This document shows, piece by piece, positions 23,679-61,291 of a stretch of 64,000 nucleotides of DNA. The DNA is from an uncultured Pirellulaceae bacterium. Lineage in GTDB: Bacteria; Planctomycetota; Planctomycetia; Pirellulales; Pirellulaceae. Within the stretch, counting starts at the first letter, position 1. Every line of letters begins with the position of its first letter. The notes under the pieces were generated by a model, which did not search any database, had not been told where the DNA came from, and saw nothing but the letters and a program-made list of their open reading frames with translations. The stretch covers positions 361,627 to 425,626 of the forward strand of contig CAZWSX010000003.1 in the NCBI GenBank assembly GCA_964636985.1, written 5' to 3'. Made by a program: the position numbers and the translations under genes.

Positions 23679-23680
23679 AT

Positions 23681-32590: not shown

Positions 32591-32612
32591 GGACGGACAG
32601 GATTGTCCGTCC
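32591..32612. repeat. AGGATT-loop palindromic element, copy 1
   Basis: GGACGGAC-AGGATT-GTCCGTCC followed by TAC, immediately 3' of the epimerase gene. Confidence 0.7.
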
Positions 32613-32618
32613 TACGGG

Positions 32619-33710
32619 CTACAGCCACTTGTTTTCGAAGTACCAGGCGATGGTTTCGGCCATGCGTTCTTGGAGCGACTTGGGTTCGTGCAGGCCTAGA
32701 TCACGACGGGCCTTTTCGCCGCTGGCTGCCCAACAGGTGGCCGTGGCCTCGCGGATCTTATCACGGTTCAAAAGTCCAGGGCGACTGTAAAACGAGCTGA
32801 GCCCTTCGTTCGCCCAAGCAACGAGCCACGCAATAGGTTTGGGAATGGGAAAGTTGGGCGCGAAGGGTCGGCGAAGCATTGGCTTAACCATTTCGCCCCA
32901 GTCGGCGTAGGTAACGAACTCGCTTCCCGAGGCGAAATAAACGCCGGTTCCGGCAGCCAAGCGGTCGCCCGACGAAGCGGGGACGCGCTCGCCGCGATCG
33001 GCTACCGCCAAGAGCAAGTCGACGAGATCGTCGACGTAGATCATCGAGAGCAGGGGCGTGCGCCAACCGACAATCGCGTGGCACCGCGATTTGCGAATGC
33101 CCTGGAAGATGACGCATTGATCGTGGCAGCCGGGACCGAACACGATGCCCGGACGAACGATTGAAAGAGGAACGCGATCGGCGTAACTCGCCGCGGCACG
33201 TTCGCCCGCGAGTTTCGTGCGGCCGTACAGCGACACGGGCGCGGGGAGGTCGGATTCGACGCGGACCGCTCCACGAGCGACGGGGCCCGCGGCGGCGATC
33301 GAAGAAACATAGACGAGGACCGGCGGCTTAGGCTGCCGCGCGCAGGCTTCGGCGACGTTGCGAGTTCCCTGCTCGTTGACGCGCATCATTCGCGCTTTGT
33401 CGAGAGCGGCGGTCTCGGCCGCCAGATGAACCACGATCGAGGCGCCCTCGAAGGCTTTGGTGAGCGAGTCGACGTCGTCGAGCGAGGTGATGGCCGCTTC
33501 GGCCTTTGCACCGGTAACGGCCGCCGCCGCGCGGTCGCTACGAACGATTCCGCGCGCCCGGTATGCGCCATTGGAGACCAGTTGGGCGATCAGGCGACTA
33601 CCGATGAACCCATTGGCACCGGTGACTGCCACTACCTTGGTGGCCGACGGCTTGCCGGTGACGACAGGAGAGTTTTCGACAACGTTAGGGTTGCTCTGCA
33701 ACGATTTCAT
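32619..33710 (-). CDS. NAD-dependent epimerase/dehydratase family (extended SDR) protein
   Basis: Rossmann motif VTGANGFIGSRL near the N-terminus; 363 aa. Confidence 0.75.
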   Translation of the reverse strand: MKSLQSNPNVVENSPVVTGKPSATKVVAVTGANGFIGSRLIAQLVSNGAYRARGIVRSDRAAAAVTGAKAEAAITSLDDVDSLTKAFEGASIVVHLAAETAALDKARMMRVNEQGTRNVAEACARQPKPPVLVYVSSIAAAGPVARGAVRVESDLPAPVSLYGRTKLAGERAAASYADRVPLSIVRPGIVFGPGCHDQCVIFQGIRKSRCHAIVGWRTPLLSMIYVDDLVDLLLAVADRGERVPASSGDRLAAGTGVYFASGSEFVTYADWGEMVKPMLRRPFAPNFPIPKPIAWLVAWANEGLSSFYSRPGLLNRDKIREATATCWAASGEKARRDLGLHEPKSLQERMAETIAWYFENKWL

Positions 33711-33947
33711 CTGAGCTAGCCTTCTAGCGATTCACGAACCGCGATTTCTTGCCATATCGGCAAATGGACCCACGAGAGTTCGCCGAGCAACACGCCAGCG
33801 AAAATCCGGCTCGACCCAAAAACCCGGACTCATTTGGCCGGGTTTCGTATTCCTAAAAGCAGGTCTACTGCGAATGGCGCGCCATTTTTGGTGGTCGAAA
33901 AGAGAGCGCGCAGTCTTTGCGCGCGTACACCGTTGGAGCTACGAAGA

Positions 33948-36900
33948 CTACTTCTTAGCGGCCGGCTTTATCTTGGGCTTTTTGCCTGGCTTGCCGGCGT
34001 CACCTGCGGGAAGAGGTTCGCCCACCACAGCGTCCTCGCCCGGTAGCGCTCCGACCTTCGACTTCTTGCCTGCGGGATCAGGCTTTTCGGCAGGCAACTT
34101 TTCGCCAGCGGGCATTTTTTCGCCCACTTTGCCTGCTGGTTTTTTTCCTCCCTTGTCGGCAGGCGGATCGTCACGGTCTTCTTTTGCAGCCTTGGCAGCA
34201 GCCGGCTTGAGCGCGTCCTCAGGGATGTCGACCGCCGGTAGGGGCTCTTGGCCGGGAATCGATCCACGATCGACCAGGCAGTAGGCCGCCCAGAAGAATG
34301 GATGGGTCGCCTTCGGAGCAGAATCCTTGACGTCGCTCTTGATGCGTGGTTCGTCCTTGTACGCAACGGGCGAATCCATGGCTAATAAAACGCTGCGTTG
34401 CCAGGCCGCGTCGGCCGGCATGTTCGGCTGCTCCTGGACGAACTCGCGGACCAGGTCGACGGCGGTTTTGCCGCCGGGCCGCCAGCGCGAGATCAACAAG
34501 GTCTGCGTCCCTGACGACATCAAAGCACAAGCCGAAAGGAAGACATCGTCACCAGCGGCGGGCTTTTTGATGGAGGCCTCGGCTGCCGTGTGGAACCCAG
34601 GGAGCACAACCAGATTGGGGCCGGCCATGGGGAGCGCCATCCAGTCGGTGAGGTCGGCTCCCTTGCGGGCCTTGTCGATCGGCAACGGCGACCAGGCGTA
34701 CGGGTTCTTGCTGGGTTCTTCGATATCTTGGAAGACCACCACACGATCGCAGATCGAGGCGTAAACCGGCGCCGGGATCGAAATCGGCTGCGCGATGCGT
34801 TCCGCTTGCGCGGTTGCCTTGGAAAGATCTTCGAAGGCAGTCGCTGCGACGCTGACATCATCGCGCGGAAATAGTTTTCCGGTCACCACGGCAGTGCGGC
34901 CTTCGCCCCGGTGGCCAATGGCATCGGGCAACGACAATCCCAGGGTCGGGGCGTAACGAACGCGCGTTTGAGCAATGAGCGGAGGAGCATCGGACCCGTC
35001 GCCTGCGACGAGGCACTCGAACGGCAGGTACCACAGGGCCCCGTCGGGGACCACGATTACTTCTTCGTACTTCGACCAACTATCGTCTTTGGCGTTGTTG
35101 GAGAGCGTTTTGAGCAGTCCCTTGGCGATGGCCTTCCAGTTGTTGCCGGCGATCGTTTCCGCTGGAACGTTGCCGTTCTTATCGAGATTGCCCATGTCTT
35201 TGAGCAATTTGGCGACCTCGGCCTTGAGCTTCGTCGGCGTTCCGACTTGAAAGGCGGACAGCTTATCCTTAGTCAACGCGAAGCCGTGCGTGGCGGTGCT
35301 GGTCGACGCGTAGTAAAGCATCAACTGCCGGCTGTTCATGCGTTTGCGAACTTCGGCGAGCGTGACCGCCGGCGGCATGATGAAGTCGGCCGCTTCGCGA
35401 CGGACCGCCATGTTCCGGAGAATCGTTTCCTGTTCTTCGGAAACCTTGGTCAGCTCCTGCAACAGCTTGGTCTGCTGTTCTTTTTGGGCGCGATCCTCGG
35501 GCATCAAAGGCAATGCGTGTAACGCCCCGCGGATCTCGTCGGCCTTGGTCATCAAGGGCTGGTAGCCAGGATAGTTTTGCAACAGCAAAGTGCGCTGCGT
35601 TTGCGTTCGGGGCGAGAGGGCGGTCACAGGCGATTCGAGAACTGCCCGCAGCGCCGGCAGACGTCCTCCCAAGGGAAGCGAGGCATAGAATCGGTGCCGC
35701 TTCATGCGATCGGCGACTTCGAGCGCGCGATCGTAGTCTTTGCGAGTAATCAGCACTTCCATCCACTTCTGGTAAGCCGCCGTGTAATCGCTCGACGAAA
35801 CGGCCAGCGTGTCGAACGGATGAATCGCCCAATCGGCGCCCGTAGGGTCGCGCAGCAATTGGGAGTACATCATGTCGACCGCGCGGTCGGAAAAGGCCTT
35901 GTCGGTGTGGTACTTGGTGGCCATGGTGATCTGAAAGAGCCATGGCGACGAGGATTGCTGAAACTTGAGGGCCGGCGTCAGGGCCGAGACGCCCGCGACC
36001 TGATTTCCCGACGCGAAGGCCAGACGAGCTTGCTCCAACTGGAGCCGCGCGTTGAACTTCGAGGGGGTCATGTCCTTGATCTCTTTTTGCGCCTGCTGAA
36101 GAATCGCGTCGGCTTCGGCGGTGCGTCCCAAGAGATTCAGGTTTTCCCCCGCTAACAAAAGAAGCGACGCGTGCAGCGCGCGGTACTCCGATTTTTTGGC
36201 CCAAGTGCCGGCCGGCACGAGCGGGGCAAACGGCTCACCGGTTCCCGCGAGGAGCCAGGCCAGTTGAGCACCACGGAAAGCCTCCTCCATTTCCTCGGCG
36301 ATGCCAAACTGCGCCGCGACGTAGGTAGCTTCCATAAAGCAGGTGCCGGCCTGGTCGTACTTCCCCTCTTCCAGCGCAAGTTGACCCAACTCGTTGAAAG
36401 CCGTGGCCGTGAGGGGGTGGTAGTAAACGTCGTTCGACTTGAGCGACTTGGTCAGCTCGCCGACGGCTTGCGCGGGCTTTCCCAAGGCGGCATAGGCACA
36501 GCCAAGTTGGACCTCGATCCAGCACTGCGACCAGTGATTCGGCGGCGCAGGTCGGGCCTTGAGAGCATTGACCAGCCGGTCGATGTTCGGATCGTGTTCG
36601 CTCAAGGGTCCTAAGATCTGACGGCGATGGCGAATGGCCGTGCACATGGCGCGGACGATTTCGGCGCAGCGGATAGGGATCGCTTGGCGCTGGGCCATCA
36701 AGAAGTTGTTGCCGTTGCCTAACCCGGGCCCCTGCATGCCTACGCTGTCGTAGATCATGTTGTAACGCTCGGCAAAGCGGCCGGGAATCACCGCTTCGAC
36801 CGGCGCTCCCCACGGTGTCGCCACGCCTGCGACAGGCGCGGGCTCGATGAGCACCGGAAAATCGATCTTCAACATCCAGTTGGAGTTGTCGTTGAACAGC

Positions 36901-37259
36901 TTGATGGCGGCATCGAAACTCTGAAGTGCTTTCGGCAAATTGCCTTGCTGATAGTGGCACTCGCCAATCATCGCGAGGAACGCGGCGGAATCGACCCACC
37001 GCGAATCAGCACCTCGAATCGCGCCTTTGAGGCCATCTTCGTACGATTCGAGGGCCCCTTCGTAGTTGCCTGCCAGCATGGCCGTTCGACCAGACTGAAA
37101 CTGCAGGTTGGGGACTTGGCCGATATTTGTTTGCGCGAGCGCAGGGCGAGTCGATGCCAGGCAGATTGCCGCGACCCCCAAAACCAATGCCGATGCGGAG
37201 CGAAACCAAACGCGGCTCAAAGCGGGCGTCATCTTATAACTCTCCGGCAAGAAACGCAT
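33948..37259 (-). CDS. secreted TPR-repeat / CHAT-domain-like protein with Lys/Pro/Ala-rich C-terminal tail
   Basis: Signal peptide, multiple TPR-like helical repeats, then a region with VIVVPDGALWYLPFECL ... LSACALMSSG that resembles the CHAT protease His/Cys blocks. The last ~120 aa are low-complexity K/P/A/G. Confidence 0.55.
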   Translation of the reverse strand: MRFLPESYKMTPALSRVWFRSASALVLGVAAICLASTRPALAQTNIGQVPNLQFQSGRTAMLAGNYEGALESYEDGLKGAIRGADSRWVDSAAFLAMIGECHYQQGNLPKALQSFDAAIKLFNDNSNWMLKIDFPVLIEPAPVAGVATPWGAPVEAVIPGRFAERYNMIYDSVGMQGPGLGNGNNFLMAQRQAIPIRCAEIVRAMCTAIRHRRQILGPLSEHDPNIDRLVNALKARPAPPNHWSQCWIEVQLGCAYAALGKPAQAVGELTKSLKSNDVYYHPLTATAFNELGQLALEEGKYDQAGTCFMEATYVAAQFGIAEEMEEAFRGAQLAWLLAGTGEPFAPLVPAGTWAKKSEYRALHASLLLLAGENLNLLGRTAEADAILQQAQKEIKDMTPSKFNARLQLEQARLAFASGNQVAGVSALTPALKFQQSSSPWLFQITMATKYHTDKAFSDRAVDMMYSQLLRDPTGADWAIHPFDTLAVSSSDYTAAYQKWMEVLITRKDYDRALEVADRMKRHRFYASLPLGGRLPALRAVLESPVTALSPRTQTQRTLLLQNYPGYQPLMTKADEIRGALHALPLMPEDRAQKEQQTKLLQELTKVSEEQETILRNMAVRREAADFIMPPAVTLAEVRKRMNSRQLMLYYASTSTATHGFALTKDKLSAFQVGTPTKLKAEVAKLLKDMGNLDKNGNVPAETIAGNNWKAIAKGLLKTLSNNAKDDSWSKYEEVIVVPDGALWYLPFECLVAGDGSDAPPLIAQTRVRYAPTLGLSLPDAIGHRGEGRTAVVTGKLFPRDDVSVAATAFEDLSKATAQAERIAQPISIPAPVYASICDRVVVFQDIEEPSKNPYAWSPLPIDKARKGADLTDWMALPMAGPNLVVLPGFHTAAEASIKKPAAGDDVFLSACALMSSGTQTLLISRWRPGGKTAVDLVREFVQEQPNMPADAAWQRSVLLAMDSPVAYKDEPRIKSDVKDSAPKATHPFFWAAYCLVDRGSIPGQEPLPAVDIPEDALKPAAAKAAKEDRDDPPADKGGKKPAGKVGEKMPAGEKLPAEKPDPAGKKSKVGALPGEDAVVGEPLPAGDAGKPGKKPKIKPAAKK

Positions 37260-37438
37260 TTGGCGAGGGAGGAAGATCCAAGATCACTCGCCTTGATGCG
37301 TTAGCGCACGGTAAACCCCTGGCCGGGCGCACTTCCATCATATCGCTTGTTGCACTTAGGTGCGCTGGGGAAAACCATCCTAAAGCGGGGGTGCCTGGTA
37401 AAGGTGCATACCTAAAGTGCTGGGCCAAAAGCGCCGGA

Positions 37439-38548: not shown

Positions 38549-38858
38549 GATTCGTCTCGCGGGGAGGACTTCGCACCGAAGTGCGAAGCGAGTTTAAAGA
38601 GGCGAGGGGGATGAAGCGGACGCAACGACGTATCTCAATCTTGACCCCTGTAATGTGCGGCGGCATGTGCAAAGGCGATCCGCGAGGTGTTACTTCGTGC
38701 CATCGCGCGGCACCATCGGCATAGCCGCTACATCCCGACGGAGGGCTGCGGGATGTCTCGCCATCGCGACGGCGGGTGACCGCCTGCCACTGGATCGCGA
38801 ACTACCCTTTCTGCGCCCACGAATTTGGCTGCTCCAACGAGAAGGGCGAGGAAAGAAC

Positions 38859-39647: not shown

Positions 39648-39725
39648 CGAACCTTGTCTCGACTCGCGCTGTCGCTTCCGTCAAACTAAATGGCACTTCA
39701 CGTGTCCCAGACGGAGTAGAAGGCG

Positions 39726-40301: not shown

Positions 40302-40386
40302 AGATTCTGTCTGAAAGAGTTTTTCCTTCTCACGAAAAACGCCACGCCGCCCCATCGCTGGTCGTCGCAGTTGTCGTATTGAACCT

Positions 40387-44127: not shown

Positions 44128-44219
44128 TCCCTCCTGGAACTGGTTCGGTGGGCCGCAAGCTTATTCGAACAGCTACCAATGCGAGAAGATCAGAAAGCGG
44201 GTTGTGTCACGCTCCCACT

Positions 44220-44236
44220 GGCGTCTGGGGGACGCC
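44220..44236. repeat. GGCGTC-N5-GACGCC palindrome copy
   Basis: GGCGTC-TGGGG-GACGCC; the same arms occur at 24874 and 25338. Confidence 0.5.
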
Positions 44237-44372
44237 AGTGCCACCCAGGCTGTCGCTGCACTCGCGAAGAGTGCGGTGGCCCCGGGGTTTTCACCGGGGG
44301 CTGTTTGAAGATTGATGTCGCTTTGCAGGGCTCCGTGTTCTGGTGAACGCGGCTACGGGTAGGCTTGCGAAA

Positions 44373-45554
44373 TTATTTTGCGGCGGCTTCGCCGGACATC
44401 ATTTCGCGGAATTGGCGGAACAGGTAGCGGCTGTCGTGTGGGCCGCTGCTTGATTCGGGGTGGTACTGCACGCTGAAGGCGGGCAAGTCGCGGTGGCGGA
44501 GGCCGGCGATCGTATTGTCGTTCAGATTGCGGTGCGTGACTTCCAGGAACGAAGGGAGCGTTTCTTCCTCGACCGCGAAGCCGTGGTTCTGCGCTGTGAT
44601 CTCGATGGCGCCGGTCAGCAGGTTCTGGACAGGCTGGTTGGCGCCACGATGTCCAAACTTGAGTTTGAAGGTTTTCGCGCCGCAGGCAAGGCCGAACAGT
44701 TGATGCCCGAGGCAGATGCCGAAGACCGGCTTCTTTCCCAGTACGCCGCGAATGCACTCTTGGGCGTATTCGAGAGGTTCGGGGTCGCCGGGGCCGTTCG
44801 ACAAAAAGACGCCGTCGGGATTGTGTGATAGCACCTCTTCCGCGGTAGCAATTCCGGGCAGCACAGTGACGCGGCAGCCTTCGTCGAATAAGTGCCGGGC
44901 GATATTCCACTTCATGCCGTAGTCGAGAGCGACGACGTGGAACTCGGCCGCGGTGTCGGCGGCACGCAGCGATTCGGTCGGCAGCTTCGCCAGGCTTTCC
45001 AATCCGCTTTTCCATTCGCGAGGCTCGGTGGGGATGACTTCCCGCACCAAGTCGCGGCCGACCAATCCAGGGCTGGCCTTGGCTTTGGCGACGAGCGAGG
45101 CGTCGTTGAGGTCGACCGTCGACAGCACTCCTTTCATGGCACCAAAGTTGCGCAAGCGGCGCACCAGCGCACGGGTATCGATGCCCGCGATGCCGACAAT
45201 GCCATAACGACGAAGATAGTCGCCGAGCATCCCTTCGGAGCGGAAGTTGCTATCGATGCGGCTGACTTCGCGGACGACAAAGCCGGCCAGGTGCGGCTTC
45301 TGGCTTTCGACATCGCTGGCGTTGACGCCGTAGTTGCCGATTTCGGGATAGGTCATCGCCACAATCTGTCCGCGATAACTGGGGTCGGTAAGGATTTCCT
45401 GGTAGCCCGTCATCGACGTGTTGAAGCAAACTTCGCCGTCGACTTCACCGGTCGCCCCGAAAGACTCTCCGACGAAAACCGATCCATCTTCCAAGGCGAG
45501 TTTGGCAATTTGAGGCTGGGCGTTTTGGGAGGATGGCGAATGCGTGTGGGTCAT
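44373..45554 (-). CDS. carA: carbamoyl-phosphate synthase small (glutamine amidotransferase) subunit
   Basis: N-terminal CPSase small-chain domain (LALEDGSVFVGESFGA...GEVCFNTSMTGYQEILTDPSYRGQIV) and a class I GATase triad region GICLGHQL...HRGANQPV. Confidence 0.9.
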   Translation of the reverse strand: MTHTHSPSSQNAQPQIAKLALEDGSVFVGESFGATGEVDGEVCFNTSMTGYQEILTDPSYRGQIVAMTYPEIGNYGVNASDVESQKPHLAGFVVREVSRIDSNFRSEGMLGDYLRRYGIVGIAGIDTRALVRRLRNFGAMKGVLSTVDLNDASLVAKAKASPGLVGRDLVREVIPTEPREWKSGLESLAKLPTESLRAADTAAEFHVVALDYGMKWNIARHLFDEGCRVTVLPGIATAEEVLSHNPDGVFLSNGPGDPEPLEYAQECIRGVLGKKPVFGICLGHQLFGLACGAKTFKLKFGHRGANQPVQNLLTGAIEITAQNHGFAVEEETLPSFLEVTHRNLNDNTIAGLRHRDLPAFSVQYHPESSSGPHDSRYLFRQFREMMSGEAAAK

Positions 45555-47418: not shown

Positions 47419-47457
47419 CGGATTGCGAGAACACCTTTTCAGAAGTCACTCGTCGTT

Positions 47458-48075
47458 ATGGATGAACCTATGACGAACCACAACGCGAGTGACGGAACCG
47501 GCTCGGTCACCTACTTCTTTGGGCAATTGCAGGCCGGCGATCCTCATGCCGCCGAGCAGATTTGGATCCGCTTCTTTCCGCGATTGGCATCGCTGGCCCG
47601 CAAGTCGCTGGCCGGGAGGCCACAGCAAATGGCCGATGCCGACGATGCGGCGCAGAGCGCCTTTGCCTCGTTTTGCCAACGCGTGCGGGGCGGGGAGTTT
47701 TCGATCGCCGACCGCGATGATCTGTGGAACTTGCTCGGTCTGATCACCAAGCGAAAGGCCCGCGCTCAGGTGCGCAGGGAACTGGCCGAGAAACGGGGCG
47801 GTGGAAAGGTGATGGGGGAAGGGGCGCTCACTAAGCCCGACGGATCGCCACTGCCGCTCGATGAAGCAGCTGGCGAGTTGGCACCGCCCGAATTCGATGC
47901 TCACGTCGAGGAGCTGCTCGATCAGCTTGAGCCCGCCGTGCGCGAGATTGCCGTGCTGCGGCTTTTGGGTTATCGCAATCGCGAGATCGCGGAGCGGCTC
48001 GACTGCACCGAACGGAAAGTCGAGCGGAAGCTGCAACTGATTCGCCTGGCGTGGGAAGCAGCTTGGCCGCAGTAG
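47458..48075 (+). CDS. ECF-type sigma factor (planctomycete Sigma70_ECF subfamily)
   Basis: 205 aa; AQSAFASFCQRVRGGEF...LWNLLGLITKRKA region 2-like and a C-terminal helix-turn-helix (IAVLRLLGYRNREIAERLDCTERKVERKLQLIR). Confidence 0.7.
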   Translation: MDEPMTNHNASDGTGSVTYFFGQLQAGDPHAAEQIWIRFFPRLASLARKSLAGRPQQMADADDAAQSAFASFCQRVRGGEFSIADRDDLWNLLGLITKRKARAQVRRELAEKRGGGKVMGEGALTKPDGSPLPLDEAAGELAPPEFDAHVEELLDQLEPAVREIAVLRLLGYRNREIAERLDCTERKVERKLQLIRLAWEAAWPQ

Positions 48076-48214
48076 GACCGTTCTCTCACGCTTGGCAAGG
48101 CAGGGATTTTAAAACACAGAGGGAGAGTAGTTCGCGTTGTGGACTGAGCATCTATCCATGATGAAAGATGCTCTCTTTGTAGATCCATATTTGCTTGCCA
48201 AAATCACGCCCTGC

Positions 48215-48236
48215 GCACAGACAGGATTGTCTGTGC
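48215..48236. repeat. AGGATT-loop palindromic element, copy 3 (with T-run, terminator-like)
   Basis: GCACAGAC-AGGATT-GTCTGTGC followed by CACTTTTT, between the convergent sigma-factor and HEAT-repeat genes. Confidence 0.7.
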
Positions 48237-48245
48237 CACTTTTTG

Positions 48246-49379
48246 TCAATTGACTTGCACTGCGATAATCTTTTCGCCCTTGAATTGCGGCTTCACTTTG
48301 GCGCCGGTTCGGAGTGCGTTCATTATCGCGCGACCGTCGCGGATGGGCTTGGCGTCGGCATCGAAGACGACGGTTCGGTCGGACGTCGGTCGAATGGTTG
48401 CTTCGCGATCGCCGTTTTTGAGCGAGATCGTCCCGGCTTTGTTGACGGCGACGACTTCCCAGGTTTCTCCTTCGCCGGGGGCTTCGACGGCTGCGGCTTG
48501 CTCGATCGCGTCGATGGCTTGTTTCACGTAGCCTCGAATTTGCTCGCTCGGATGATTGCGAAGCCTTCGCAAGTCGGGCAAGACATTTTTTGCGGCTGCG
48601 CCTAGTTCTACCAGAGACTTGATCGCACCCCTCTCGTCGCGATTGTTCTTGGCTTGATTCTGAATCATCACCATGCACCCGGCAGCGACCTTGGCTGGAT
48701 CGGCGCGGCCATCGAGCGCTCGCTTGGTGAGGATGGGCAACGCTCCATAACGGTTCGTGCCTCCTTGCAGGGCGGCGAACAACGCGCTGTTGATTTCGTC
48801 GTCCTTGAGATTCCGCTCAGCGATGAGGCGGACGGCGGTGACTCGGCAGTGGCTGCCTAGCAGGACCTTATCCAAGTCTCCCCTGGCGGCGAGCATGATC
48901 AGGCGGCTCACTTCGGCATCGCTGGGGCCAGTCGCGTGGAGCGCCTCTAGCAGCGCTGCTTGTTTGTAGTTGTTGGTAGGTTCGCTCCAAAGCCTCTTGA
49001 GCACGGGCAGTGCTGCTTGGCCTTGCTCGGCTTGCTCAGCGATGGCAACCGCAGCTCCAAGCCGTGCCTGCCCACGCTTATCGCCATTGAGCAGGATCGT
49101 CAGGACGTGCGGGTGAACCTCAGGGGCGACTTTTTCCAAGGCGTCCGACGCCGCCTGCCAGACATCGCTGGCCTGCTTTTCCGTGACCAGGAGTTCGCAA
49201 AGGGCATTGCCGGCCGGTAGGCCTCGCTTTTCCATCGCTGCAATTTCTTCGCAGGCGGCGATTTTGGTTACGGGATTGTGACCGGAAAGCTGCTTGATCA
49301 GGCCGTCTAGATCGGCAGCCACAGCCACTGCTGGCCAAAACGCAATGACGGCGATAACGAGCAAACGAACAGGGTTCAT
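48246..49379 (-). CDS. secreted HEAT/armadillo-like repeat protein
   Basis: Signal peptide MNPVRLLVIAVIAFWPAVAVA. Repeated helical pairs with conserved small residues (for example ...DVWQAASDALEKVAPEVHPHVLTILLNGDKRGQARLGAAVAIAEQAE...). Confidence 0.55.
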   Translation of the reverse strand: MNPVRLLVIAVIAFWPAVAVAADLDGLIKQLSGHNPVTKIAACEEIAAMEKRGLPAGNALCELLVTEKQASDVWQAASDALEKVAPEVHPHVLTILLNGDKRGQARLGAAVAIAEQAEQGQAALPVLKRLWSEPTNNYKQAALLEALHATGPSDAEVSRLIMLAARGDLDKVLLGSHCRVTAVRLIAERNLKDDEINSALFAALQGGTNRYGALPILTKRALDGRADPAKVAAGCMVMIQNQAKNNRDERGAIKSLVELGAAAKNVLPDLRRLRNHPSEQIRGYVKQAIDAIEQAAAVEAPGEGETWEVVAVNKAGTISLKNGDREATIRPTSDRTVVFDADAKPIRDGRAIMNALRTGAKVKPQFKGEKIIAVQVN

Positions 49380-53170: not shown

Positions 53171-53178
53171 AACGGCGA

Positions 53179-55188
53179 CTAAACTGCCGCCGCGGTGAAC
53201 TGCTTCACCAGTTCCGCGTAGCCGCCGCTGGCTTGCATTAGTTCGTCGTGCGTGCCGCGTTCGACGATGTGGCCGTTCTCAAGAACCAGTACCAGGTCGG
53301 CGTTGCGGATGGTGCTGAGGCGGTGGGCGACGATGAAGCTGGTTCGCCCGGCCAGGAGTTTGGCGAGCGCGTTTTGCAGGCGCAGTTCGGTGAGCGTGTC
53401 GATGCTGCTGGTGGCTTCGTCGAGAATTACGATTCGTGGATTGACGATCATCGCTCGCACGAAGCAGACGAGTTGCCGTTGCCCCAACGAAAGCTGCGCG
53501 CCCCGTTCGCCGACTTGCGTTTCCAGTCCGTCGGGCAAGGCCTCGAGCAGGTCGAGGCAATCGAGCTGCAGAGCCGCCGCGCGGATTTCTTCATCGGTTG
53601 CGTCTGGTTTGCCGAGGCGAATGTTGTCGGCAATGGAACCGGTAAACAGAAAGTTGTTTTGCAGCACCAGGCCCATCTGGTGGTGGAGCGAATCGGCGGT
53701 GATTCCTCGAAGATCGTGGCCATCGATGGAGACGGTTCCGGAGCTGGCTAGATAGAACCGCGAAATCAGGTTGATGATCGATGATTTGCCGCTGCCGGTT
53801 CGGCCGACCAGTGCGACGCTTTGGCCTGGCTGGGCGGTGAACGAAATATCGTGCAGCACCGTGCGATCGGGAACATAGGCGAACGAGACGTGGTCGAATG
53901 CGACGCGCCCCACAATCAGTGGCAGCAGTTGAGCGTCGGGAGCGTCTTGCCACTCGGGCTTGGTATCAAGGAACTTGAAGACCCGCTCGGCACCCGCCAT
54001 GGCGGTGAGCGATTGGTTGTACATGTTGCCGATGTGCTGGATCGGGCTGAAGAAGCTACTGGCCAGAAAGAAGAAGTAGATCAGTCTGCCCGCATCGATA
54101 TCGGTAGTGGAACTGAGAACTCGCCAGCCACCCACTAGCAGGAGCGCGACCAAAAAGGATTGGCTGCTGAACTCTAACAGCGGCATGAGCAGGCCTTCGA
54201 CCCGCACCGCTTTGTAGACGTTATTACCATGCTCGGTCATCTGGTCGACAAAGAGTTCGGAGTTCACATCTTCGCGCACGTAGCCTTGAATCACCCGGAT
54301 GCCGTTGATCGATTCGGCCAAGGTCGCTGTCACGCCGCTGAAGCTCTCTTGAATTCGCCGGTGCGCGCGGGAAAGCCTTGCACGGAAGAGCTGATTGAGC
54401 GCATAAATCACAGGACTGATGCCCGCGATCACCAGGAACAAGACCCAGTCGCAGTAGGCCATCATCAGTGCCGAGACGACCATCTGGCCAAGACCGACGA
54501 GCCCGACGAATAGAACATCCTGCACCCCGACGCGGAGCGCTTCGGCATCGCTGGTGAAGCGGCTGATGATTCGGCCGATCTTGTTCTTGTTGAAGAAGCC
54601 CATCGGCATCGATTGCAAGTGCCTGAAGATCTGTTGCCGCAGATCGTGAATGACGGCTTCGCCGAGTTCGAGCGCGAGCCGCTGTCGGAAGTGGAACGTG
54701 AACTGCGTGAACAAGGCGATGCCCGCGACGCCGGCTGCGCCGAGCAGGATTTGTTGAAACTGCGACTGGCGAACGAGAGGCCACTCGATGATGGCGCCGA
54801 TGGACTGTGCAACTTGTTCCAGGCCGATCGATTGAAAGTAGACTCGCATCCCCAGCAAGCTGTGGTAGAGCAGCGAGGGGTTCTTGATCGGGCCATTGAT
54901 CACCGCGGCGATCGACCACGCAATCAAGGGGAGCTGTATGGCCCGCAAGACGACGCACAGCCCCAGCCAATTCCGTTTCGCCGCATAAGGGGCCGTGTAG
55001 GCAAACAGCCGGCGAATGAGACTCCATTCGAGCGGACGGCGCTCGGTCTCGTGGTCGTCGTGCTTCCGAACGGTGAGCCGAACCTGTCGTTTACGCACGG
55101 CTCGTGTCGCGCCGGCTTCGCCGCGATCGCGAGTATCGTGTGGGACTGGCTTGGCTTCGGCAATCATTTTCGTCGACATGGTCACCAT
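53179..55188 (-). CDS. ABC exporter, fused permease/ATPase (type I, MsbA-like), partner 1
   Basis: Six-helix TMD, then Walker A GRTGSGKSS, signature LSLGQRQL, Walker B IVILDEATS. Confidence 0.85.
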   Translation of the reverse strand: MVTMSTKMIAEAKPVPHDTRDRGEAGATRAVRKRQVRLTVRKHDDHETERRPLEWSLIRRLFAYTAPYAAKRNWLGLCVVLRAIQLPLIAWSIAAVINGPIKNPSLLYHSLLGMRVYFQSIGLEQVAQSIGAIIEWPLVRQSQFQQILLGAAGVAGIALFTQFTFHFRQRLALELGEAVIHDLRQQIFRHLQSMPMGFFNKNKIGRIISRFTSDAEALRVGVQDVLFVGLVGLGQMVVSALMMAYCDWVLFLVIAGISPVIYALNQLFRARLSRAHRRIQESFSGVTATLAESINGIRVIQGYVREDVNSELFVDQMTEHGNNVYKAVRVEGLLMPLLEFSSQSFLVALLLVGGWRVLSSTTDIDAGRLIYFFFLASSFFSPIQHIGNMYNQSLTAMAGAERVFKFLDTKPEWQDAPDAQLLPLIVGRVAFDHVSFAYVPDRTVLHDISFTAQPGQSVALVGRTGSGKSSIINLISRFYLASSGTVSIDGHDLRGITADSLHHQMGLVLQNNFLFTGSIADNIRLGKPDATDEEIRAAALQLDCLDLLEALPDGLETQVGERGAQLSLGQRQLVCFVRAMIVNPRIVILDEATSSIDTLTELRLQNALAKLLAGRTSFIVAHRLSTIRNADLVLVLENGHIVERGTHDELMQASGGYAELVKQFTAAAV

Positions 55189-55199
55189 CGACGGACAGG

Positions 55200-55219
55200 A
55201 TTGTCCGTCCTACCCGAAA
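55200..55219. repeat. AGGATT-loop palindromic element, copy 2
   Basis: GACGGAC-AGGATT-GTCCGTC followed by CTAC, in the 35-nt spacer between the two ABC exporter genes. Confidence 0.7.
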
Positions 55220-55223
55220 CTGT

Positions 55224-57164
55224 CTACTTGTCTTCGTCCCCAGCGGCAACTGGCGTCGCGCCAAGCGATTGCACGGCGCCCCACTGAGCCTCGGCGGCAT
55301 CACGGAAATGCCCTTCCTGAGTGAGCAATTCGGCGTGCGTGCCTGCCTGAACGATCCGTCCTTCTTCCAGCACGATGACGCGATCAACTCGGCGGAGCGT
55401 GCTCAACCGGTGCGCGATGATCAGTGTGGTTCGCCCGGCCATGGCACCATCGATGGCCGAGAGGATTTCTTCTTCGGTATGCGGATCGACCGAGGCAGCG
55501 GGATCGTCCATCAACAGCACGGCCGGATCGAGCAGCACCGCGCGGGCAATGGCTAAACGCTGCCGCTGGCCGCCTGAGAGATCGAGGCCGGACTCGCCGA
55601 GGATGGTGTCGTACCCGTCGGGCAACTCTTTGATGAACGGATGGGCGGCGGCGATCTTGCAGGCCGTTTCCACTTGTTCCTGCGTTGCTTCGGGGTGGCC
55701 AAACGCGATATTCGCTGAAACGGTGTTGCTAAAGAGGAAGGTCTCCTGGAACACCAGGCCGATCGACCGGCGGACGTCGTCGAGGTTCAGTTCGCGGAGG
55801 TCGATTCCATCGAGCGTGATGCGGCCCGCCGTCGGATCGTAGAACCGACAGATCAAAGCGAAGAGTGTGCTCTTGCCGGACCCTGTCGGCCCGAGAATCG
55901 CCAGCGATTCGCCCATGTCCATCGTGAACGAGATGTCCTTGAGCACCAGCGGCCCATCGCCGTAGGCGAACGAGACGTTTTCGAAAACGAGTCGCCCGCC
56001 AGCATGCGGCAGACGCTGAGCATCGGCTTTCGATTGGACCTCGGTGGGAGCATCGAGGATTTCGAAGACGCGTTTCGCACCGGACAAGCTTTGCTGGATG
56101 CTGTTGGTGATGTTGGTGATATTCGCCACCTGGCTGGAGAACTGCTGCAAATAACCAGCGAAAACAATGAGGCCGGCACCGATGGTGAGAGTCCCCGTCG
56201 AAACCAGCCAGCCACCGTATATCAGCAGAATGACGATGTTCAACTGCGTCATGAAGCCGACCGTCGGCGTGAAGATGCTCACCAGCCAAAAGATGCCTTG
56301 CTGCTGGTCGCGGACGGCATCGTTGCGATTGGCAAATTTGCCGATTTCCTCCGACTCGCGGCCAAACCCTTTGAGCACCTGGGCGCCCTGAATGTTTTCC
56401 GAGAGCCGCAGGATCAAGTCATCGACCAGGTCGCGGTTCTTGTCGTATTGGGGACGGACACGCCGGGAAAACAACTGAGTCGCGATGGCCATCAATGGCG
56501 TCGTCGCCAAGCAGGCAAGCGTGAGCCACGCATGAATCTGCACCATTGCCACGATGTAAAACACAAAGCTGATGGCCAGAACCGCGAGTTGAATCAGCAC
56601 GGCATCGATGAATGCACGTACTGATTGAGCGTCGCTAGTAACGCGATTGATGATCGAGCCGGTGGCGTTAGCGTCGAAAAAGCGGAAGCTCAACCGCTGC
56701 ATCTTGTCGTACAGCATCGATCGCAGATACGGAACGATGCGCGTATGGATGACCCGCCCCGAACTGCGGAGGAAGATGAAATTCAGCGATGCTCGAATTA
56801 TCTCGATCGCCAAAAGCAAAAGGGCGATTCGCACTACCTGCGTCATCGGCGGCGGGGTGGGATTGGGATCGAGAATCGAATAGGGAACCACTCTTGCTTT
56901 GGCCGAGTGATGGATGACATCGATTCCCAAACCGAGCAATTGCAGCGCGGTGATCGTGAGGAACTGGAGAACCGTTTGGAGGCTGAGCATCCACAGGCAT
57001 TGCCAGCGGTAGCGCCAAGTGAACCCGAGCATCCGCCACATCAGATAGGCGCTGCTGGGTTCCGCTGATTTCTCAGGGGCTGATTTCTCAGCGCCCACTT
57101 TCTCAGGGACTGGGATGGCAGCTTTGACGGGGCCGTTCACGCGTGTGGCAGGGTGCGGGGACAA
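55224..57164 (-). CDS. ABC exporter, fused permease/ATPase, partner 2 (likely heterodimer with 53179..55188)
   Basis: TMD plus Walker A GPTGSGKST, signature LSGGQRQRL, Walker B VLLMDDPAS. Confidence 0.85.
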   Translation of the reverse strand: MSPHPATRVNGPVKAAIPVPEKVGAEKSAPEKSAEPSSAYLMWRMLGFTWRYRWQCLWMLSLQTVLQFLTITALQLLGLGIDVIHHSAKARVVPYSILDPNPTPPPMTQVVRIALLLLAIEIIRASLNFIFLRSSGRVIHTRIVPYLRSMLYDKMQRLSFRFFDANATGSIINRVTSDAQSVRAFIDAVLIQLAVLAISFVFYIVAMVQIHAWLTLACLATTPLMAIATQLFSRRVRPQYDKNRDLVDDLILRLSENIQGAQVLKGFGRESEEIGKFANRNDAVRDQQQGIFWLVSIFTPTVGFMTQLNIVILLIYGGWLVSTGTLTIGAGLIVFAGYLQQFSSQVANITNITNSIQQSLSGAKRVFEILDAPTEVQSKADAQRLPHAGGRLVFENVSFAYGDGPLVLKDISFTMDMGESLAILGPTGSGKSTLFALICRFYDPTAGRITLDGIDLRELNLDDVRRSIGLVFQETFLFSNTVSANIAFGHPEATQEQVETACKIAAAHPFIKELPDGYDTILGESGLDLSGGQRQRLAIARAVLLDPAVLLMDDPAASVDPHTEEEILSAIDGAMAGRTTLIIAHRLSTLRRVDRVIVLEEGRIVQAGTHAELLTQEGHFRDAAEAQWGAVQSLGATPVAAGDEDK

Positions 57165-57814
57165 CGAAGTCGGTTCCTTCCACGTGCAATCTAGACGGCG
57201 AGTCGAACTGCGAAAAGGCTGCGACGGCTGCTAGCCCCCTCGAAGTGCGGAAAACACGGAATTCACGGCAAATATCAATAATCCGTCGCTGTGCGAGGGG
57301 CTCCCTTTCCAAAAAAATCCGAGTTCCCTAACTGTCCATCGCAGCGAGAGTTGCAACTTAACAAATGCCTAGTTGGAGGGGTGTGCGGATGGTCCCAAAC
57401 CAAGAGTCGACTTGCGGAAACGATATAATTACAGCCAGTGCTCCCCAAGATGCGGCGAGTCGCAGTTAGGTTCGCCGAGTTTTGGGAAGCTTACGAGAGC
57501 GCACCGCTCTAACGTATTGGTCTCGTGAGTATTCGAGGCCAGCCCAGTGGACCGCCTTCGTTTGGAAATTGATTCCAGCCGAAGGTAATAGTCCGCGTCT
57601 CTCACCATTTCGATTTGCCCCCTAGGTGCGTGGCGGCAAGTTGCAGGCGCTTCCGCCGTCCGGCGAAGCGACACATCTAGCGCGAAGCGATTTCGCCTCC
57701 CGTTTTGAGTTCTCGTCCGCCTTTTGTGCGCGGTCGCCGTGGGAATCCCTATACCCACAGCGTCCCAAACACTTCGGCGAGCGAATACCTCAGCAGCGGA
57801 ACCGGTGCGCGCGA

Positions 57815-57820
57815 AAGGAG
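57815..57820 (+). promoter_or_regulatory. Shine-Dalgarno AAGGAG for the flotillin gene (GTG start 7 nt downstream)
   Basis: gcgAAAGGAGacacacgGTG. Confidence 0.5.
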
Positions 57821-57827
57821 ACACACG

Positions 57828-59789
57828 GTGATATTCATTCTGGAAGTGACTTTGGGGGTCGTTGTTGCTTTGGCGTTACTCGCCATTTTCGTGAGCTTGC
57901 GCTACATCCCCAACAACAAGATCGGGATCGTTGAAAAACTCTGGTCGGCCGCCGGTTCGCTCGGCGAAGGCCAGATTGTCGCCCTCTCGGGCGAAGCCGG
58001 TTACCAAGCCGACATCCTGCGTGGTGGCATTCACCTGGGCTTTTGGCGGTGGCAATTCGCCGTCCACAAACGGCCGCTGGTGATCGTCAAGCAAGGGAAG
58101 ATCGGTTACGTGTTTGCCCGTGGTGGCAAGCCGTTGACGCCTAGCCAGACGCTGGGACAAGTCGTCGATAGCAACTATTACCAAGACGCGCGGATGTTCC
58201 TGAATCAAGGTGGCCAACGTGGTCGCCAACGGGCCATCCTGCGTGAAGGGGTTTATGCCGTGAACCTGGCTTTGTTCAACGTGATCACTGAAGACGGGGT
58301 GTATGCCCTGGAGTGGACGCGCGACCTTGCCGAGTGGCAAGAGACCCTGCAAGCGATTCACGGTTTCGATCCGGTGGTAGTCGGCGCCAGGAAGATCGGC
58401 GAACACGACGACATCGGGATTGTGACCGTGCACGAAGGTCCGGCCCTGCCGCAAGGCGAAATCATCGCCCCGGCGGTCGGTATGGACCCGCTCGAAAAGC
58501 ATTGCCACAACAACTACCAGGACGTGGAAGCGTTCCTGGCGGCTGGTGGCCGTCGCGGTTTGCAGTACGCGCCGCTGATTGACGGGACGTATTTCATTAA
58601 CCGCTGGTTTGCCACGATCGAGTTCATTCCGAAGGAAGTTGTGCCGATCGGCTGCGTAGGGGTCGTCGTTTCGTACTGCGGCCGCCAAGGCGCCGATACC
58701 TCGGGCGTGACCTTCCGACACGGTGAACGCGTTCACGAAGGGGAGCGCGGCGTGTGGGAAAACACGCTCGGCCCCGGCAAGTATCCGTTCAACCGCTATG
58801 CCGGCCAGATCATCCACGTGCCGACCACGAACTTCGTGCTGCACTGGATCACGGGCCGAACGGAGGACCACCGCTTTGACGACAGCCTCAAGAGTATCGA
58901 GCTCATTACCCGCGACGCCTATGAACCAAACCTGCCTCTCTCGGTGGTCGTGCACATCGACTACCAGAAGGCGCCGAACGTGATTCAACGTTTCGGTGAC
59001 GTGAAACAGCTCATTACGCAAACGCTCGACCCATTACTCTCGGCTTACTTCCGAGATATTGCGCACCGTAAGAGCATGCTCGAGCTGATCCACGACCGCG
59101 ACCTGATTCAATCCCAGGCCCGCGACGAACTGCGGGCGAAGTTCACGCTGTTCGACATCGAATGTGTCGACGTGCTGATAGGTAAGCCCGAGGCCGTGAA
59201 AGGAGACAACTCGATCGAAAACTTGCTCGAACAGCTGCGTCAACGGCAATACGCCGTCGAGCAGATGGAAACGTTCGCCAAGCAGGAAGCTGCCGCGGCG
59301 CACGAGAAGACGCTCAACGAAGCGAAGGCCAAAGCTGCTTTGCAGCCGAAGCTGACGCAGTCGAAGATCCAAATCGAAATGGCGGCCAACGAAGCCGACG
59401 CCGAGTTGACTCGTGCCCGCAAGAAGGCCGAGCAGACCATCGTGTTGGCCGAGGCCAACTCGCGGCAGGCCGTGTTGGAGGGTAAAGGTGAGGCCGAAAA
59501 GATCGGCCAGGTGGGTGCCGCCGAAGCCGACGTATTGCGGCAAAAAGTAGCCAGCTTTGGCGACCCCCGTTATTACGCCTTGAGCGTGATCGCGGACCAA
59601 CTTGCCAACAGCAAACAACCGCTGGTGCCGAGCCAAATGTTCGTCACTGGGGGTTCAGGCGGCGAGGCCAGCGGCAATATGCTGTCGGCCCTCGTCGGCC
59701 TGATGACGGCCGACCGACTGGGCTTCGATTACAAACCGATCGTCGCCCGGGAGGTGATGCCGCCGGTCGAATCGAAGAACGGTGCCTAA
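57828..59789 (+). CDS. flotillin-like SPFH/band-7 protein (GTG start preferred over the ORF-track TTG at 57705)
   Basis: N-terminal TM helix (VIFILEVTLGVVVALALLAIFV), then IPNNKIGIVEKLWS...GEAGYQADILRGG, an SPFH domain, and a C-terminal coiled-coil rich in A/E/K/Q (flotillin EA-repeat region). Confidence 0.8.
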   Translation: MIFILEVTLGVVVALALLAIFVSLRYIPNNKIGIVEKLWSAAGSLGEGQIVALSGEAGYQADILRGGIHLGFWRWQFAVHKRPLVIVKQGKIGYVFARGGKPLTPSQTLGQVVDSNYYQDARMFLNQGGQRGRQRAILREGVYAVNLALFNVITEDGVYALEWTRDLAEWQETLQAIHGFDPVVVGARKIGEHDDIGIVTVHEGPALPQGEIIAPAVGMDPLEKHCHNNYQDVEAFLAAGGRRGLQYAPLIDGTYFINRWFATIEFIPKEVVPIGCVGVVVSYCGRQGADTSGVTFRHGERVHEGERGVWENTLGPGKYPFNRYAGQIIHVPTTNFVLHWITGRTEDHRFDDSLKSIELITRDAYEPNLPLSVVVHIDYQKAPNVIQRFGDVKQLITQTLDPLLSAYFRDIAHRKSMLELIHDRDLIQSQARDELRAKFTLFDIECVDVLIGKPEAVKGDNSIENLLEQLRQRQYAVEQMETFAKQEAAAAHEKTLNEAKAKAALQPKLTQSKIQIEMAANEADAELTRARKKAEQTIVLAEANSRQAVLEGKGEAEKIGQVGAAEADVLRQKVASFGDPRYYALSVIADQLANSKQPLVPSQMFVTGGSGGEASGNMLSALVGLMTADRLGFDYKPIVAREVMPPVESKNGA

Positions 59790-59885
59790 CGTAGGTCCGG
59801 TCTCCCGACCGGACGCTGAGCAATGGCAAGCGCCGGCGTTTTGAAAAGCGCCGGCGCCCCACGACTTCGCAACAGGATCAAGAGA

Positions 59886-60215
59886 ATGGAGTTATTTTGC
59901 CAGCGCTGTGGAATGCCCACGAATCTCCCCACGCGAGGGGCGTACATCGTCCGTTGCCACATATGTGGTCATACGATTTACCATGACACGGCGAACGGCC
60001 ACAACGCTTCGATTCATTTTCCCGTCCGCGACTACTTCGCCGATTGGCTGTCGTCGGCACACGAGACCATGTCTAATTTTCTTAATGACACCTACAACCA
60101 CGTCGGGACATTTTTCTCGTACGGCCCCGTCTGGACGGAGTCGGAACAGCACTTCGAAAACAATCCCAACAACTCGCCGCCTGAGGCCCGAGCGCGGTTT
60201 CCGCGTTGGAGGTAA
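59886..60215 (+). CDS. small zinc-ribbon protein (start uncertain; 59823 is the alternative)
   Basis: CQRCGMPTN...RCHICGH is a four-Cys ribbon, directly downstream of the flotillin gene. Confidence 0.3.
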   Translation: MELFCQRCGMPTNLPTRGAYIVRCHICGHTIYHDTANGHNASIHFPVRDYFADWLSSAHETMSNFLNDTYNHVGTFFSYGPVWTESEQHFENNPNNSPPEARARFPRWR

Positions 60216-60227
60216 ACAGCAGAGCGG

Positions 60228-60833
60228 CTAGCCCCAGATGGTGGCCAATTTCAAGACGAAGCCCGGCAGGACAGGATCGCCGCTGACGCTTTCGGGATTG
60301 TCGAGTTGCGTTGGCTCCATGCCGGGCTGGTAGGTCCAGAGCGTTTTGGAATCGGGATCGATGAGCCAGCCGAGACGGACGCCGGCGTCGATGTACTCGC
60401 GCATTTTGGCGTGCAGTGGCGTGAGTGAATCGGATGGTAAACGCAACTCGATGACAAAGTCAGGAGCAAGAGGAAGAAACTTTCGCCTGTGTTCTTTTGA
60501 AAGCTGTTCTACGCGATCACGCAAAACCCAGGACGCATCGGGCGAAAGAACAGCCCCTGTGCGCAACGTAAATCCACCGGATGAGTCGTAGACCTTTCCT
60601 AGGTTTTGAATTCGATTCCAAATCCCGAGTTCCAGATTGAGAAGAGCGTTCATACCGGAGGAATCGGCACCTGCTGGGGGCATAATGACGATGTCTCCAT
60701 TCGCGGCTCGCTCGATACGAACGTCGCGATTGCGTTGGCAGAAGTCGAAGAACTCGTCGTCCGACATGACTTTCCAGCTGGGTCCGAATTGGACAATCAG
60801 CGGAATCTCTGAATCGAAGTGTACTGTCGCCAT
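60228..60833 (-). CDS. Uma2-family (DUF820) PD-(D/E)xK-like endonuclease
   Basis: 201 aa; ...RIERAANGDIVIMPPAG...LAPDFVIELRLPSDS... matches the characteristic Uma2 catalytic-core spacing. Confidence 0.7.
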   Translation of the reverse strand: MATVHFDSEIPLIVQFGPSWKVMSDDEFFDFCQRNRDVRIERAANGDIVIMPPAGADSSGMNALLNLELGIWNRIQNLGKVYDSSGGFTLRTGAVLSPDASWVLRDRVEQLSKEHRRKFLPLAPDFVIELRLPSDSLTPLHAKMREYIDAGVRLGWLIDPDSKTLWTYQPGMEPTQLDNPESVSGDPVLPGFVLKLATIWG

Positions 60834-60922
60834 GGCGATCTCACTGGCAGAACTCGAAAGCTATTAACTTCAAGTATACCTCTGGCAGCTGCGCCGGAAA
60901 AAGCGATTTAGCGGCGAAACCG

Positions 60923-61192
60923 CTAACTCCCTTTCTTCGCACTCACATACAACATTCGCATCTCGTGTAGCACGGCGGTGAGCATGCCGTGTTCGTCGGT
61001 GGAGAGGTTGTTCTTCGTCTTCTGCTCGATGACGTCGAGCAGGTCGATGAAGTGCTTGGCGAGGTCGAAGTTGGGTTCGACTTTCTCTTGGCCGGGGACT
61101 GGCATTTTGCCCATGGCCACCATCGACTGGGTGGCCAAAAGTTGGACCAAGGTCGACATCGACGCGGGCGGGATTTGTTGTTGCTCGGCCAT
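60923..61192 (-). CDS. DUF1844-like small protein
   Basis: MAEQQQIPPASMSTLVQLLATQSMVAMGKMP...HFIDLLDVIEQKTKNNLSTDE...LHEMRMLYV pattern. Confidence 0.5.
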   Translation of the reverse strand: MAEQQQIPPASMSTLVQLLATQSMVAMGKMPVPGQEKVEPNFDLAKHFIDLLDVIEQKTKNNLSTDEHGMLTAVLHEMRMLYVSAKKGS

Positions 61193-61263
61193 ATTGCTCG
61201 TCCTCACTTCACACTACCAATGCTCTTCGCTACAGCGCGTTTCGAATCGGCAAATTCCACCGC

Positions 61264-61291
61264 GCACAGACAGGATTAGGATTGTCTGTGC
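61264..61291. repeat. AGGATT-loop palindromic element, copy 4 (loop duplicated, followed by T-run)
   Basis: GCACAGAC-AGGATTAGGATT-GTCTGTGC-TACTTTTT, 3' of pyrG. Confidence 0.7.

Follow-up and report, generated by a model that had tools for sequence, protein, structure and literature searches.

A GT[AG]G-tagged hairpin class just past stop codons in an uncultured Pirellulaceae bacterium: a probable REP element mobilised by a RAYT transposase

To characterize a family of short hairpins in an uncultured Pirellulaceae bacterium, we analyzed a stretch of 64,000 nucleotides of contig CAZWSX010000003.1 (positions 361,627 to 425,626; assembly GCA_964636985.1), hereafter the window. Its coding content is planctomycete in character, including a DUF1501 gene and a PF07638 extracytoplasmic function (ECF) sigma factor gene, and its pyrG product is 84-85% identical to the counterparts of Pirellula staleyi and Anatilimnocola. 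A preliminary description, made from the sequence alone, had noted four hairpins read on the plus strand and likened them to repetitive extragenic palindromes (REPs). REPs are short palindromes that carry a GTAG head and are spread in bacterial genomes by a dedicated transposase. All four hairpins do exist (Table 1). Each is a unit of 25-31 nt with a 5' GT[AG]G head, or tag, at the foot of a GC-rich stem of 8-9 bp that carries a small loop. On the plus strand the palindromes of copies 1 to 4 are followed by TAC, TAC, CAC, and TAC, respectively, and on the minus strand every copy reads 5'-GT[AG]G and then the palindrome (GTAG in copies 1, 2, and 4; GTGG in copy 3). The conserved 3' YAC corresponds to the GTRG head in reverse complement, so the minus strand is the informative one.

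The gene upstream of the hairpin is on the minus strand in all four cases, and the tag lies 3, 10, 6, and 3 nt past its stop codon in copies 1, 2, 3, and 4, respectively. Copy 1 follows the TAG stop of an epimerase gene (32619-33710, minus) and is located 150 nt upstream of the start of the DUF1501 gene (32440). Copy 2 follows an ABC exporter gene (55224-57164, minus) and fills the 35-nt spacer that separates it from a co-directional ABC gene (53179-55188, minus); only 1 nt separates its 3' arm from the annotated ATG of the latter (55188). Any ribosome-binding region of this ABC gene would fall within the hairpin (55186-55213), suggesting that the true start of the gene may be further downstream. 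Copy 3 follows the TGA stop of a HEAT-repeat gene (48246-49379, minus) and lies between convergent genes, as the ECF sigma gene (47458-48075, plus) ends 139 nt away. Finally, copy 4 follows the TAA stop of pyrG, encoding CTP synthase (61298-62929, minus), inside the 90-nt spacer that precedes a DUF1844 gene (60923-61207, minus). Thus, three contexts are unidirectional, one is convergent, and none is divergent, with copies 2 and 4 probably within operons (ABC-ABC and pyrG-DUF1844). The preliminary description had placed all copies directly 3' of genes, which holds for the epimerase, ABC exporter, and pyrG genes, while copy 3, which it had assigned to the sigma factor gene, adjoins the HEAT-repeat gene instead.

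An exhaustive hairpin scan showed that the stems are perfect, with 8-9 bp and a loop of 4 nt (10 nt in copy 4). The hexamer AGGATT, previously described as a 6-nt loop, is indeed present in all four copies; nevertheless, its A and T pair with each other, generating a 9-bp stem with a GGAT loop of 4 nt, and RNA folding agrees with the scan. In copy 4 this hexamer is tandemly duplicated (AGGATTAGGATT, 61272-61283), a gain of 6 nt that leaves the stem intact and gives a loop of 10 nt instead of 4. Two stem types, GGACGGACA (A) and GCACAGACA (B), are distinguished by two differences, both compensated; the description had reported full compensation correctly, but at three positions and over stems of 8 bp, a length found only in copy 2. 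Its coordinates were accurate for copies 1, 3, and 4 and about 10 nt off for copy 2, which it had placed at 55200-55219. The folding energy of the four copies ranges from -13.5 to -16.7 kcal/mol, the lowest value being that of copy 1 (z-score -4.5), and z-scores fall between -3.2 and -4.5 in three copies and reach only -1.3 in copy 2.

The recurrence of the element is not explained by base composition. The 18-mer ACRGACAGGATTGTCYGT occurs three times against 0.07 expected, a count reached in none of 100 shuffles, and GT[AG]G-tagged perfect hairpins of any class number ten in the window against 1.05 +/- 1.09 in shuffled sequence; chance palindromes were therefore rejected by these controls. The hexamer AGGATT by itself is not enriched (32 observed vs 24.4 expected). 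A local or segmental duplication was also rejected as the source of the four copies, because their flanks are unrelated (about 25-45% ungapped identity). Allowing up to two mismatches in the 12-nt core, no fifth copy was detected within the 64-kb window, and no partner copy that would form a REP doublet (REPIN) lies near any of the four. In Rfam searches only tRNAs reached the gathering score in the window, with no match at the hairpins at E<=5 or E<=10. It should be noted that the type-B copies share YACTTTTT (48236-48245 and 61291-61299) and CNGC (48211-48214 and 61260-61263) beyond the palindrome, and from these shared flanks the unit copied in the source genome may be about 38 nt.

Comparison with orthologous loci argues for mobility of the element. 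In two loci with pyrG genes at 87% and 84% identity (L110 and L111), there is no copy after pyrG and none across 21 kb. The pyrG-DUF1844 spacer of L111, which is P. staleyi-like, measures 63 nt vs 90 nt in the window, a gap of 27 nt that is close to the 31 nt of the element. Because the orthologous pyrG loci lack the element, the copy after pyrG is, as judged from these two loci, an insertion and not a conserved part of the regulation of the gene.

To determine the distribution of the class, public genomes (one per species) were scanned with the core ACNGACAGGATTGTCNGT. At least 107 loci were matched, and 122 pattern matches are contained in the loci listed. In 94 of these 122, the two outer pairs left unconstrained by the search are complementary and the YAC tail is present; among the matches listed, these 94 are distributed in Acidobacteriota (43), Planctomycetota (40), Verrucomicrobiota (4), and Cloacimonadota (3), with one each in Binatia, Armatimonadota, Hydrogenedentes, and Melioribacteraceae. 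Single matches in Prevotella, Clostridia, Proteobacteria, and similar groups are without the outer pairs and the YAC tail and look like chance. Phage carriage was also rejected, as the 16 viral-contig matches are at about chance level and one is REP-like. Many genomes have several separate loci, e.g., at least seven in Terriglobia CAWGNS01 and at least eight in Planctomyces sp. JAYVCB01. Head-to-head inverted pairs with the GTAG heads outside, 28-70 nt apart, were found at a minimum of 11 loci, and tandem clusters at four of the loci listed (L004, L048, L086, and L104). A literature search for the hairpin sequence itself returned unrelated primer matches only.

The collected copies indicate that the structure of the hairpin is preserved. 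Of the two pairs left free by the search, one is Watson-Crick in 106 of 123 copies (GC 53, AT 48) and the other in 114 of 123 (GC 71, CG 39). Double-sided changes occur at six of the nine stem pairs in an alignment of 150 distinct copies, and slid controls reach 23-43% pairing; this alignment was prefiltered for hairpins, and its pairing figure of 95% is biased upward. Among 158 distinct copies, 149 have G at the first position of the tag, 124 have T at the second, 149 have A or G at the third, and 140 have G at the fourth. The loop and the pair that closes it read AATCCT in 120 of the 158, with variants including AATCTT and ATTCCT. Accordingly, the loop that had been called invariant is better described as conserved. 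A lack of further copies, a local duplication as their source, and a loop not conserved elsewhere, which the preliminary description had named as counting against its proposal, were each checked and none was found.

The proposal of a partner transposase gained support from three contigs. In L059, a Melioribacteraceae contig, the ORF at 2870-3676 matches the Pfam family Y1_Tnp (31 bits, cut-off 23) and the REP-associated tyrosine transposase (RAYT) of E. coli, RayT (2.9e-5). This RAYT has a copy of the hairpin at its 5' end, a dimer just downstream, and, within the ORF itself, an inverted pair in frame. Two homologues with about 60% identity, P0013 (L192) and P0018 (L193), are encoded on other contigs and are hairpin-flanked too, the copy in L192 being a compensated stem variant with an unchanged loop. 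L059, L192, and L193 are all low-GC contigs. The genome of L059 also encodes, in L194, a RAYT paralogue with 56% identity that has another palindrome pair on both of its sides (Table 1); this shows class-specific REPtrons within one genome, a pairing already described for REPtrons.

The alignment of RAYT proteins showed invariant N-H-V-H, W-Q, and Y...NP(V/I)KA motifs, with variable insertions after the HuH motif. Insertions of the own REP or of a REP doublet, in frame and just after HuH, are present in L059 (3141-3200), P0002, P0003, P0006, P0010, and others, some of them multiple and in tandem, and REP-encoded peptides such as QTGLS and QTILS were found in 17 close homologues of the L059 RAYT. 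Subclass 2.4 (Bertels group 4) is characterized by NH[IFV]H, WQ, and YIxNNP motifs, a length of about 194 amino acids, and REPs inserted in frame in the stretch from the HuH to the Y motif (Quentin et al., 2018; PMC6006769). The hairpin-flanked RAYT, with NHVH, WQ, and Y..NNP motifs, a length of about 200 amino acids, and in-frame REP insertions, matches subclass 2.4, an assignment made by motifs and not by phylogeny.

We also examined 80 metagenomic relatives of the L059 RAYT for GTRN-tagged perfect hairpins within 250 nt of the gene. Such hairpins were found upstream of 59 relatives, downstream of 62, on both sides of 51, and inside the RAYT ORF of 12, and their density near the RAYT is sevenfold that elsewhere (3.0 vs 0.44 per kb). 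The hairpins that flank these 51 relatives belong to other sequence classes.

The four hairpins have extensive parallels with known systems. GTAG REPs have been described in Planctomycetes and Verrucomicrobia and in O. terrae, mostly just downstream of ORFs (Di Nocera et al., 2013; PMC3733652). As here, they have a GT[AG]G head, a stem of 6-13 bp closed by a small loop, and compensated subfamilies, occur as singletons and head-to-head dimers with several families per genome and GTGG variants (O. terrae), and, where genes are unidirectional or convergent, lie less than 20 bp past the 3' end of an ORF. The present class differs from GTAG-20 and GTAG-21 of R. baltica in the peptides listed there; neither its sequence nor its peptides appear in the supplementary files, and its core extends to Acidobacteriota and other phyla beyond the GTAG-repeat hosts named in the text available. 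With subclass 2.4 REPs it shares the canonical GT[AG]G feet and a patchy phylum distribution, unlike them it has short stems of 8-9 bp rather than "long" ones (PMC6006769), and, in contrast to the canonical feet, low-GC copies linked to a RAYT are often tagged GTAC or GTAA. Like the REPs and bacterial interspersed mosaic elements (BIMEs) of E. coli, which have a GTAG head and an imperfect palindrome and are associated with the Y1 transposase RayT (YafM), these are GTAG-headed palindromes in extragenic positions past stop codons; the E. coli elements, in contrast, are longer, with bulged stems, are mostly in BIME arrays, belong with a RAYT of subclass 2.2, and have no sequence similarity to this class. 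The inverted doublets with outward heads seen in other genomes resemble the REPINs of Pseudomonas (Bertels and Rainey, 2011), whereas the window copies are singletons and the core is common to several phyla, REPIN-RAYT systems being described as inherited vertically within a lineage.

Taken together, the GT[AG]G foot, the short palindrome, the position 3' of ORFs, the compensated subfamilies, and the dimers and REP-flanked RAYTs of other genomes fit the definition of a canonical REP given in the literature (PMC3733652, PMC6006769), and we consider it very probable that the four hairpins form one class of non-autonomous REP elements multiplied by a cognate RAYT. The RAYT (TnpA-REP), a HUH/Y1 tyrosine transposase, would multiply and move these elements in trans as single-stranded DNA hairpins, binding the folded hairpin together with its GTAG head and then cleaving and rejoining at this site; a RAYT of the subclass 2.4 type is the putative mobiliser in the source genome. 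After insertion past stop codons, the REP would be transcribed passively as part of a 3' untranslated region or operon spacer, where, by analogy with other REPs, it would probably form a stable RNA hairpin that blocks 3' exonucleases or damps read-through, and so may affect the neighboring genes.

Several observations weigh against this interpretation. All window copies are singletons and not the dimers held to be the mobile unit. Searches of the window and the loci listed, performed with phmmer (queries E. coli RayT and the L059 RAYT) and with a hidden Markov model (HMM) of 117 homologues, found a RAYT in L059 only, and none in the window or the 106 other loci; likewise, none of the 80 metagenomic RAYT loci has the four-hairpin core. 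The three RAYT-linked examples all come from low-GC Ignavibacteriota-like contigs, these searches returned no cognate from the GC-rich phyla, and the planctomycete-type RAYTs of L109, L213, L214, and P0080 (the last by peptide) are tied to other REP classes.

Candidates for a cognate RAYT in the GC-rich phyla were considered individually. P0112 (Rhodopirellula), P0301, and P0277 were rejected, as other REP classes are found there, and P0073 is a fragment from the low-GC clade. A chimeric query including REP-encoded peptides retrieved 120 planctomycete-type RAYTs, none of them with the peptides of the four-hairpin class.

It is possible, and we hold this view tentatively, that the hairpins are mainly host regulatory RNA, stabilizing the upstream mRNA, attenuating read-through, or stalling terminating ribosomes, with mobility being secondary. 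Such roles are documented for E. coli REPs: REP325 stabilizes the upstream mRNA and attenuates transcription of the downstream gene (bioRxiv 10.64898/2026.03.23.713779), and ribosomes reportedly stall at REPs located no more than 15 nt from a stop codon (Liang, 2015; cited in PMC12306157), a distance within which all four window copies lie and at which, by analogy, they could act similarly. Orientation points the same way, as the head faces the co-oriented upstream gene in all seven stop-proximal tagged hairpins of the window, counting all classes (p ~0.008 under random orientation), and stop-proximal copies in other genomes are sense in 24 cases vs antisense in 10; the gene calls behind the latter figures are crude even with the codon-position gene model that replaced a longest-ORF pass, unreliable in GC-rich DNA. 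On the other hand, the orthologous pyrG loci do without the element, and a near-perfect palindrome folds alike in either orientation, so that RNA stability alone leaves the orientation bias unexplained. A regulatory role is in any case compatible with REP/RAYT mobility and does not displace it.

That the hairpins are intrinsic (Rho-independent) terminators sharing their sequence by accident appears very unlikely, despite being GC-rich and positioned after genes. On the plus strand, copy 3 is followed by CACTTTTT and copy 4 by TACTTTTT, both scored as terminator-like by a consensus scan, and for the convergent ECF sigma gene copy 3 could serve as a terminator. However, these T-runs are on the antisense strand and confined to these two copies, there is no plus-strand gene upstream of copy 4, and no U-tract comes after any copy when it is read in the direction of the neighboring genes (3' flanks AAUAAG, GAUGGU, GCAGGG, and GCGGUG). 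Furthermore, copy 2 occupies the ABC-ABC spacer and copy 4 is within the conserved pyrG-DUF1844 pair, T-runs are no general feature of the class among the matches listed from other genomes, and termination would leave the GTRG head, the dimers, and the RAYT association unexplained. The terminator role suggested in the preliminary description is thus not supported in the sense orientation, whereas its REP-like element with a RAYT partner is supported by the many additional copies, which keep the loop and the GT[AG]G head and include compensated stem variants, and by the flanked RAYTs. Least probable of all, and in our opinion hardly credible, is a double-stranded DNA operator for a palindrome-recognizing host protein: a near-perfect inverted repeat of 20-22 bp conserved in several places would suit such a protein, but the copies follow stop codons and are not at promoters, the center is asymmetric, the one-sided GTRG tag is conserved, and the stem covaries freely with pairing kept, meaning that structure and not sequence is preserved, the opposite of what is expected from a duplex binder that reads bases.

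In most descriptions, REP-RAYT systems are specific to one lineage and inherited vertically. As far as the collected sequences indicate, one core, GACAATCCTGTC, with an AUCC loop and a GTRG head, is nearly unchanged across at least seven phyla and GC contents from about 30% to more than 65%. This sharing across phyla is the sole unusual feature of the class, and it fits the patchy distribution reported for subclass 2.4. We regard it as unlikely that this sharing goes beyond recurrent horizontal transfer of a subclass 2.4 REPtron and reflects some feature common to the hosts that keeps the hairpin constant; if it did, the candidates would include recognition of the loop by a conserved host factor or a role linked to the termination of translation, the latter suggested by the strict head-to-stop orientation in the window.

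If the hairpins are REPs moved by a RAYT, then the four copies and the three further tagged classes of the window (Table 1) should be annotated as REP elements and not as terminators, small RNAs, or operators. The class would add a concrete REP to Planctomycetota and Acidobacteriota, phyla whose small mobile repeats and RAYTs are little studied, and its core, common to several phyla, offers a handle on the movement of REP-RAYT systems between lineages. The pyrG-DUF1844, ABC-ABC, and epimerase-DUF1501 pairs are possible sites of expression tuning.

Table 1. Tagged hairpins of the window, assigned to putative REP classes, and the palindrome pair that flanks the RAYT paralogue of contig L194.
Feature	Position	Strand	Description
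Hairpin copy 1 (type A)	32591-32615	minus	palindrome 32591-32612; sense GTAG-GACGGACA-ATCC-TGTCCGTC-C
Hairpin copy 1, plus-strand reading	32591-32612	plus	GGACGGACA-GGAT-TGTCCGTCC
Hairpin copy 2 (type A, stem 8 bp)	55190-55213	minus	palindrome 55190-55209; GTAG tag 55213-55210
Hairpin copy 3 (type B)	48215-48239	minus	sense GTGG-CACAGACA-ATCC-TGTCTGTG-C
Hairpin copy 3, plus-strand reading	48215-48236	plus	GCACAGACA-GGAT-TGTCTGTGC
Hairpin copy 4 (type B stem, as copy 3)	61264-61294	minus	palindrome 61264-61291; GTAG tag
Second putative REP class, copy 1	17589-17612	plus	GTAG-CCGCGTTC-GCCA-GAACGCGG; 10 nt past stop of ORF 17099-17578 (plus)
Second putative REP class, copy 2	29653-29676	plus	GTAG-CTGCGTTC-GCCA-GAACGCAG; one compensated stem change
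Third putative REP class	59791-59814	plus	GTAG-GTCCGGTC-TCCC-GACCGGAC; 1 nt past stop of Band 7 gene 57705-59789 (plus)
Fourth tagged palindrome	44216-44244	minus	GTGG-CACTGGCGTC-CCCCA-GACGCCAGTG; 128 nt past stop of ORF 44373-45554 (minus)
L194 palindromes (contig L194)	2930-3000 and 3600-3660		GCAGATT-ACA-AATCTGC and ACAGATT-TGT-AATCTGT

With respect to the other tagged palindromes, the second copy of the second class begins 16 nt past the stop codon of a gene encoding a thiamine pyrophosphate (TPP) enzyme (27696-29636, plus), and the palindrome class GCGTTCGCCAGAACGC was seen once more, in L107, a metagenome-assembled genome (MAG) of Planctomyces sp. SH-PL62. Two planctomycete-type RAYT loci show arrangements of their own. 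The RAYT of L214 (10001-10771) lies between tandem arrays of GTAGT-CGCAAGCG-GCCT-CGCTTGCG, with five copies upstream and two downstream (9564-10950). In L213 (RAYT at 10001-10729), head-to-head dimers GTAG...CACGC-TCC-GCGTG are located at 12967-13040 and 20354-20430, more than 2 kb away and not flanking the gene.

Finally, the window carries a minus-strand tRNA array (21789-24471) with about 19-21 genes in 2.7 kb and many different anticodons, adjoining an HNH_5 endonuclease-like ORF (19878-20735, minus) and ORFs with no Pfam match. Two perfect palindromes of 28 nt lie within the array, ATTTTTGGACGC-CAGA-GCGTCCAAAAAT (23340-23367) and ATTTTTGGTCGC-AAGA-GCGACCAAAAAT (23653-23680), which differ by a compensated stem change and have A/T runs on both sides, giving them the look of bidirectional terminators. 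The GC skew changes sign at about 28000-32000, being negative to the left (about -0.08) and positive to the right (about +0.04), with the cumulative minimum near 30 kb; this change coincides with a switch in the strand that carries most genes, and on either side the C-rich strand is the coding one. All four hairpin copies are located to the right of this switch.

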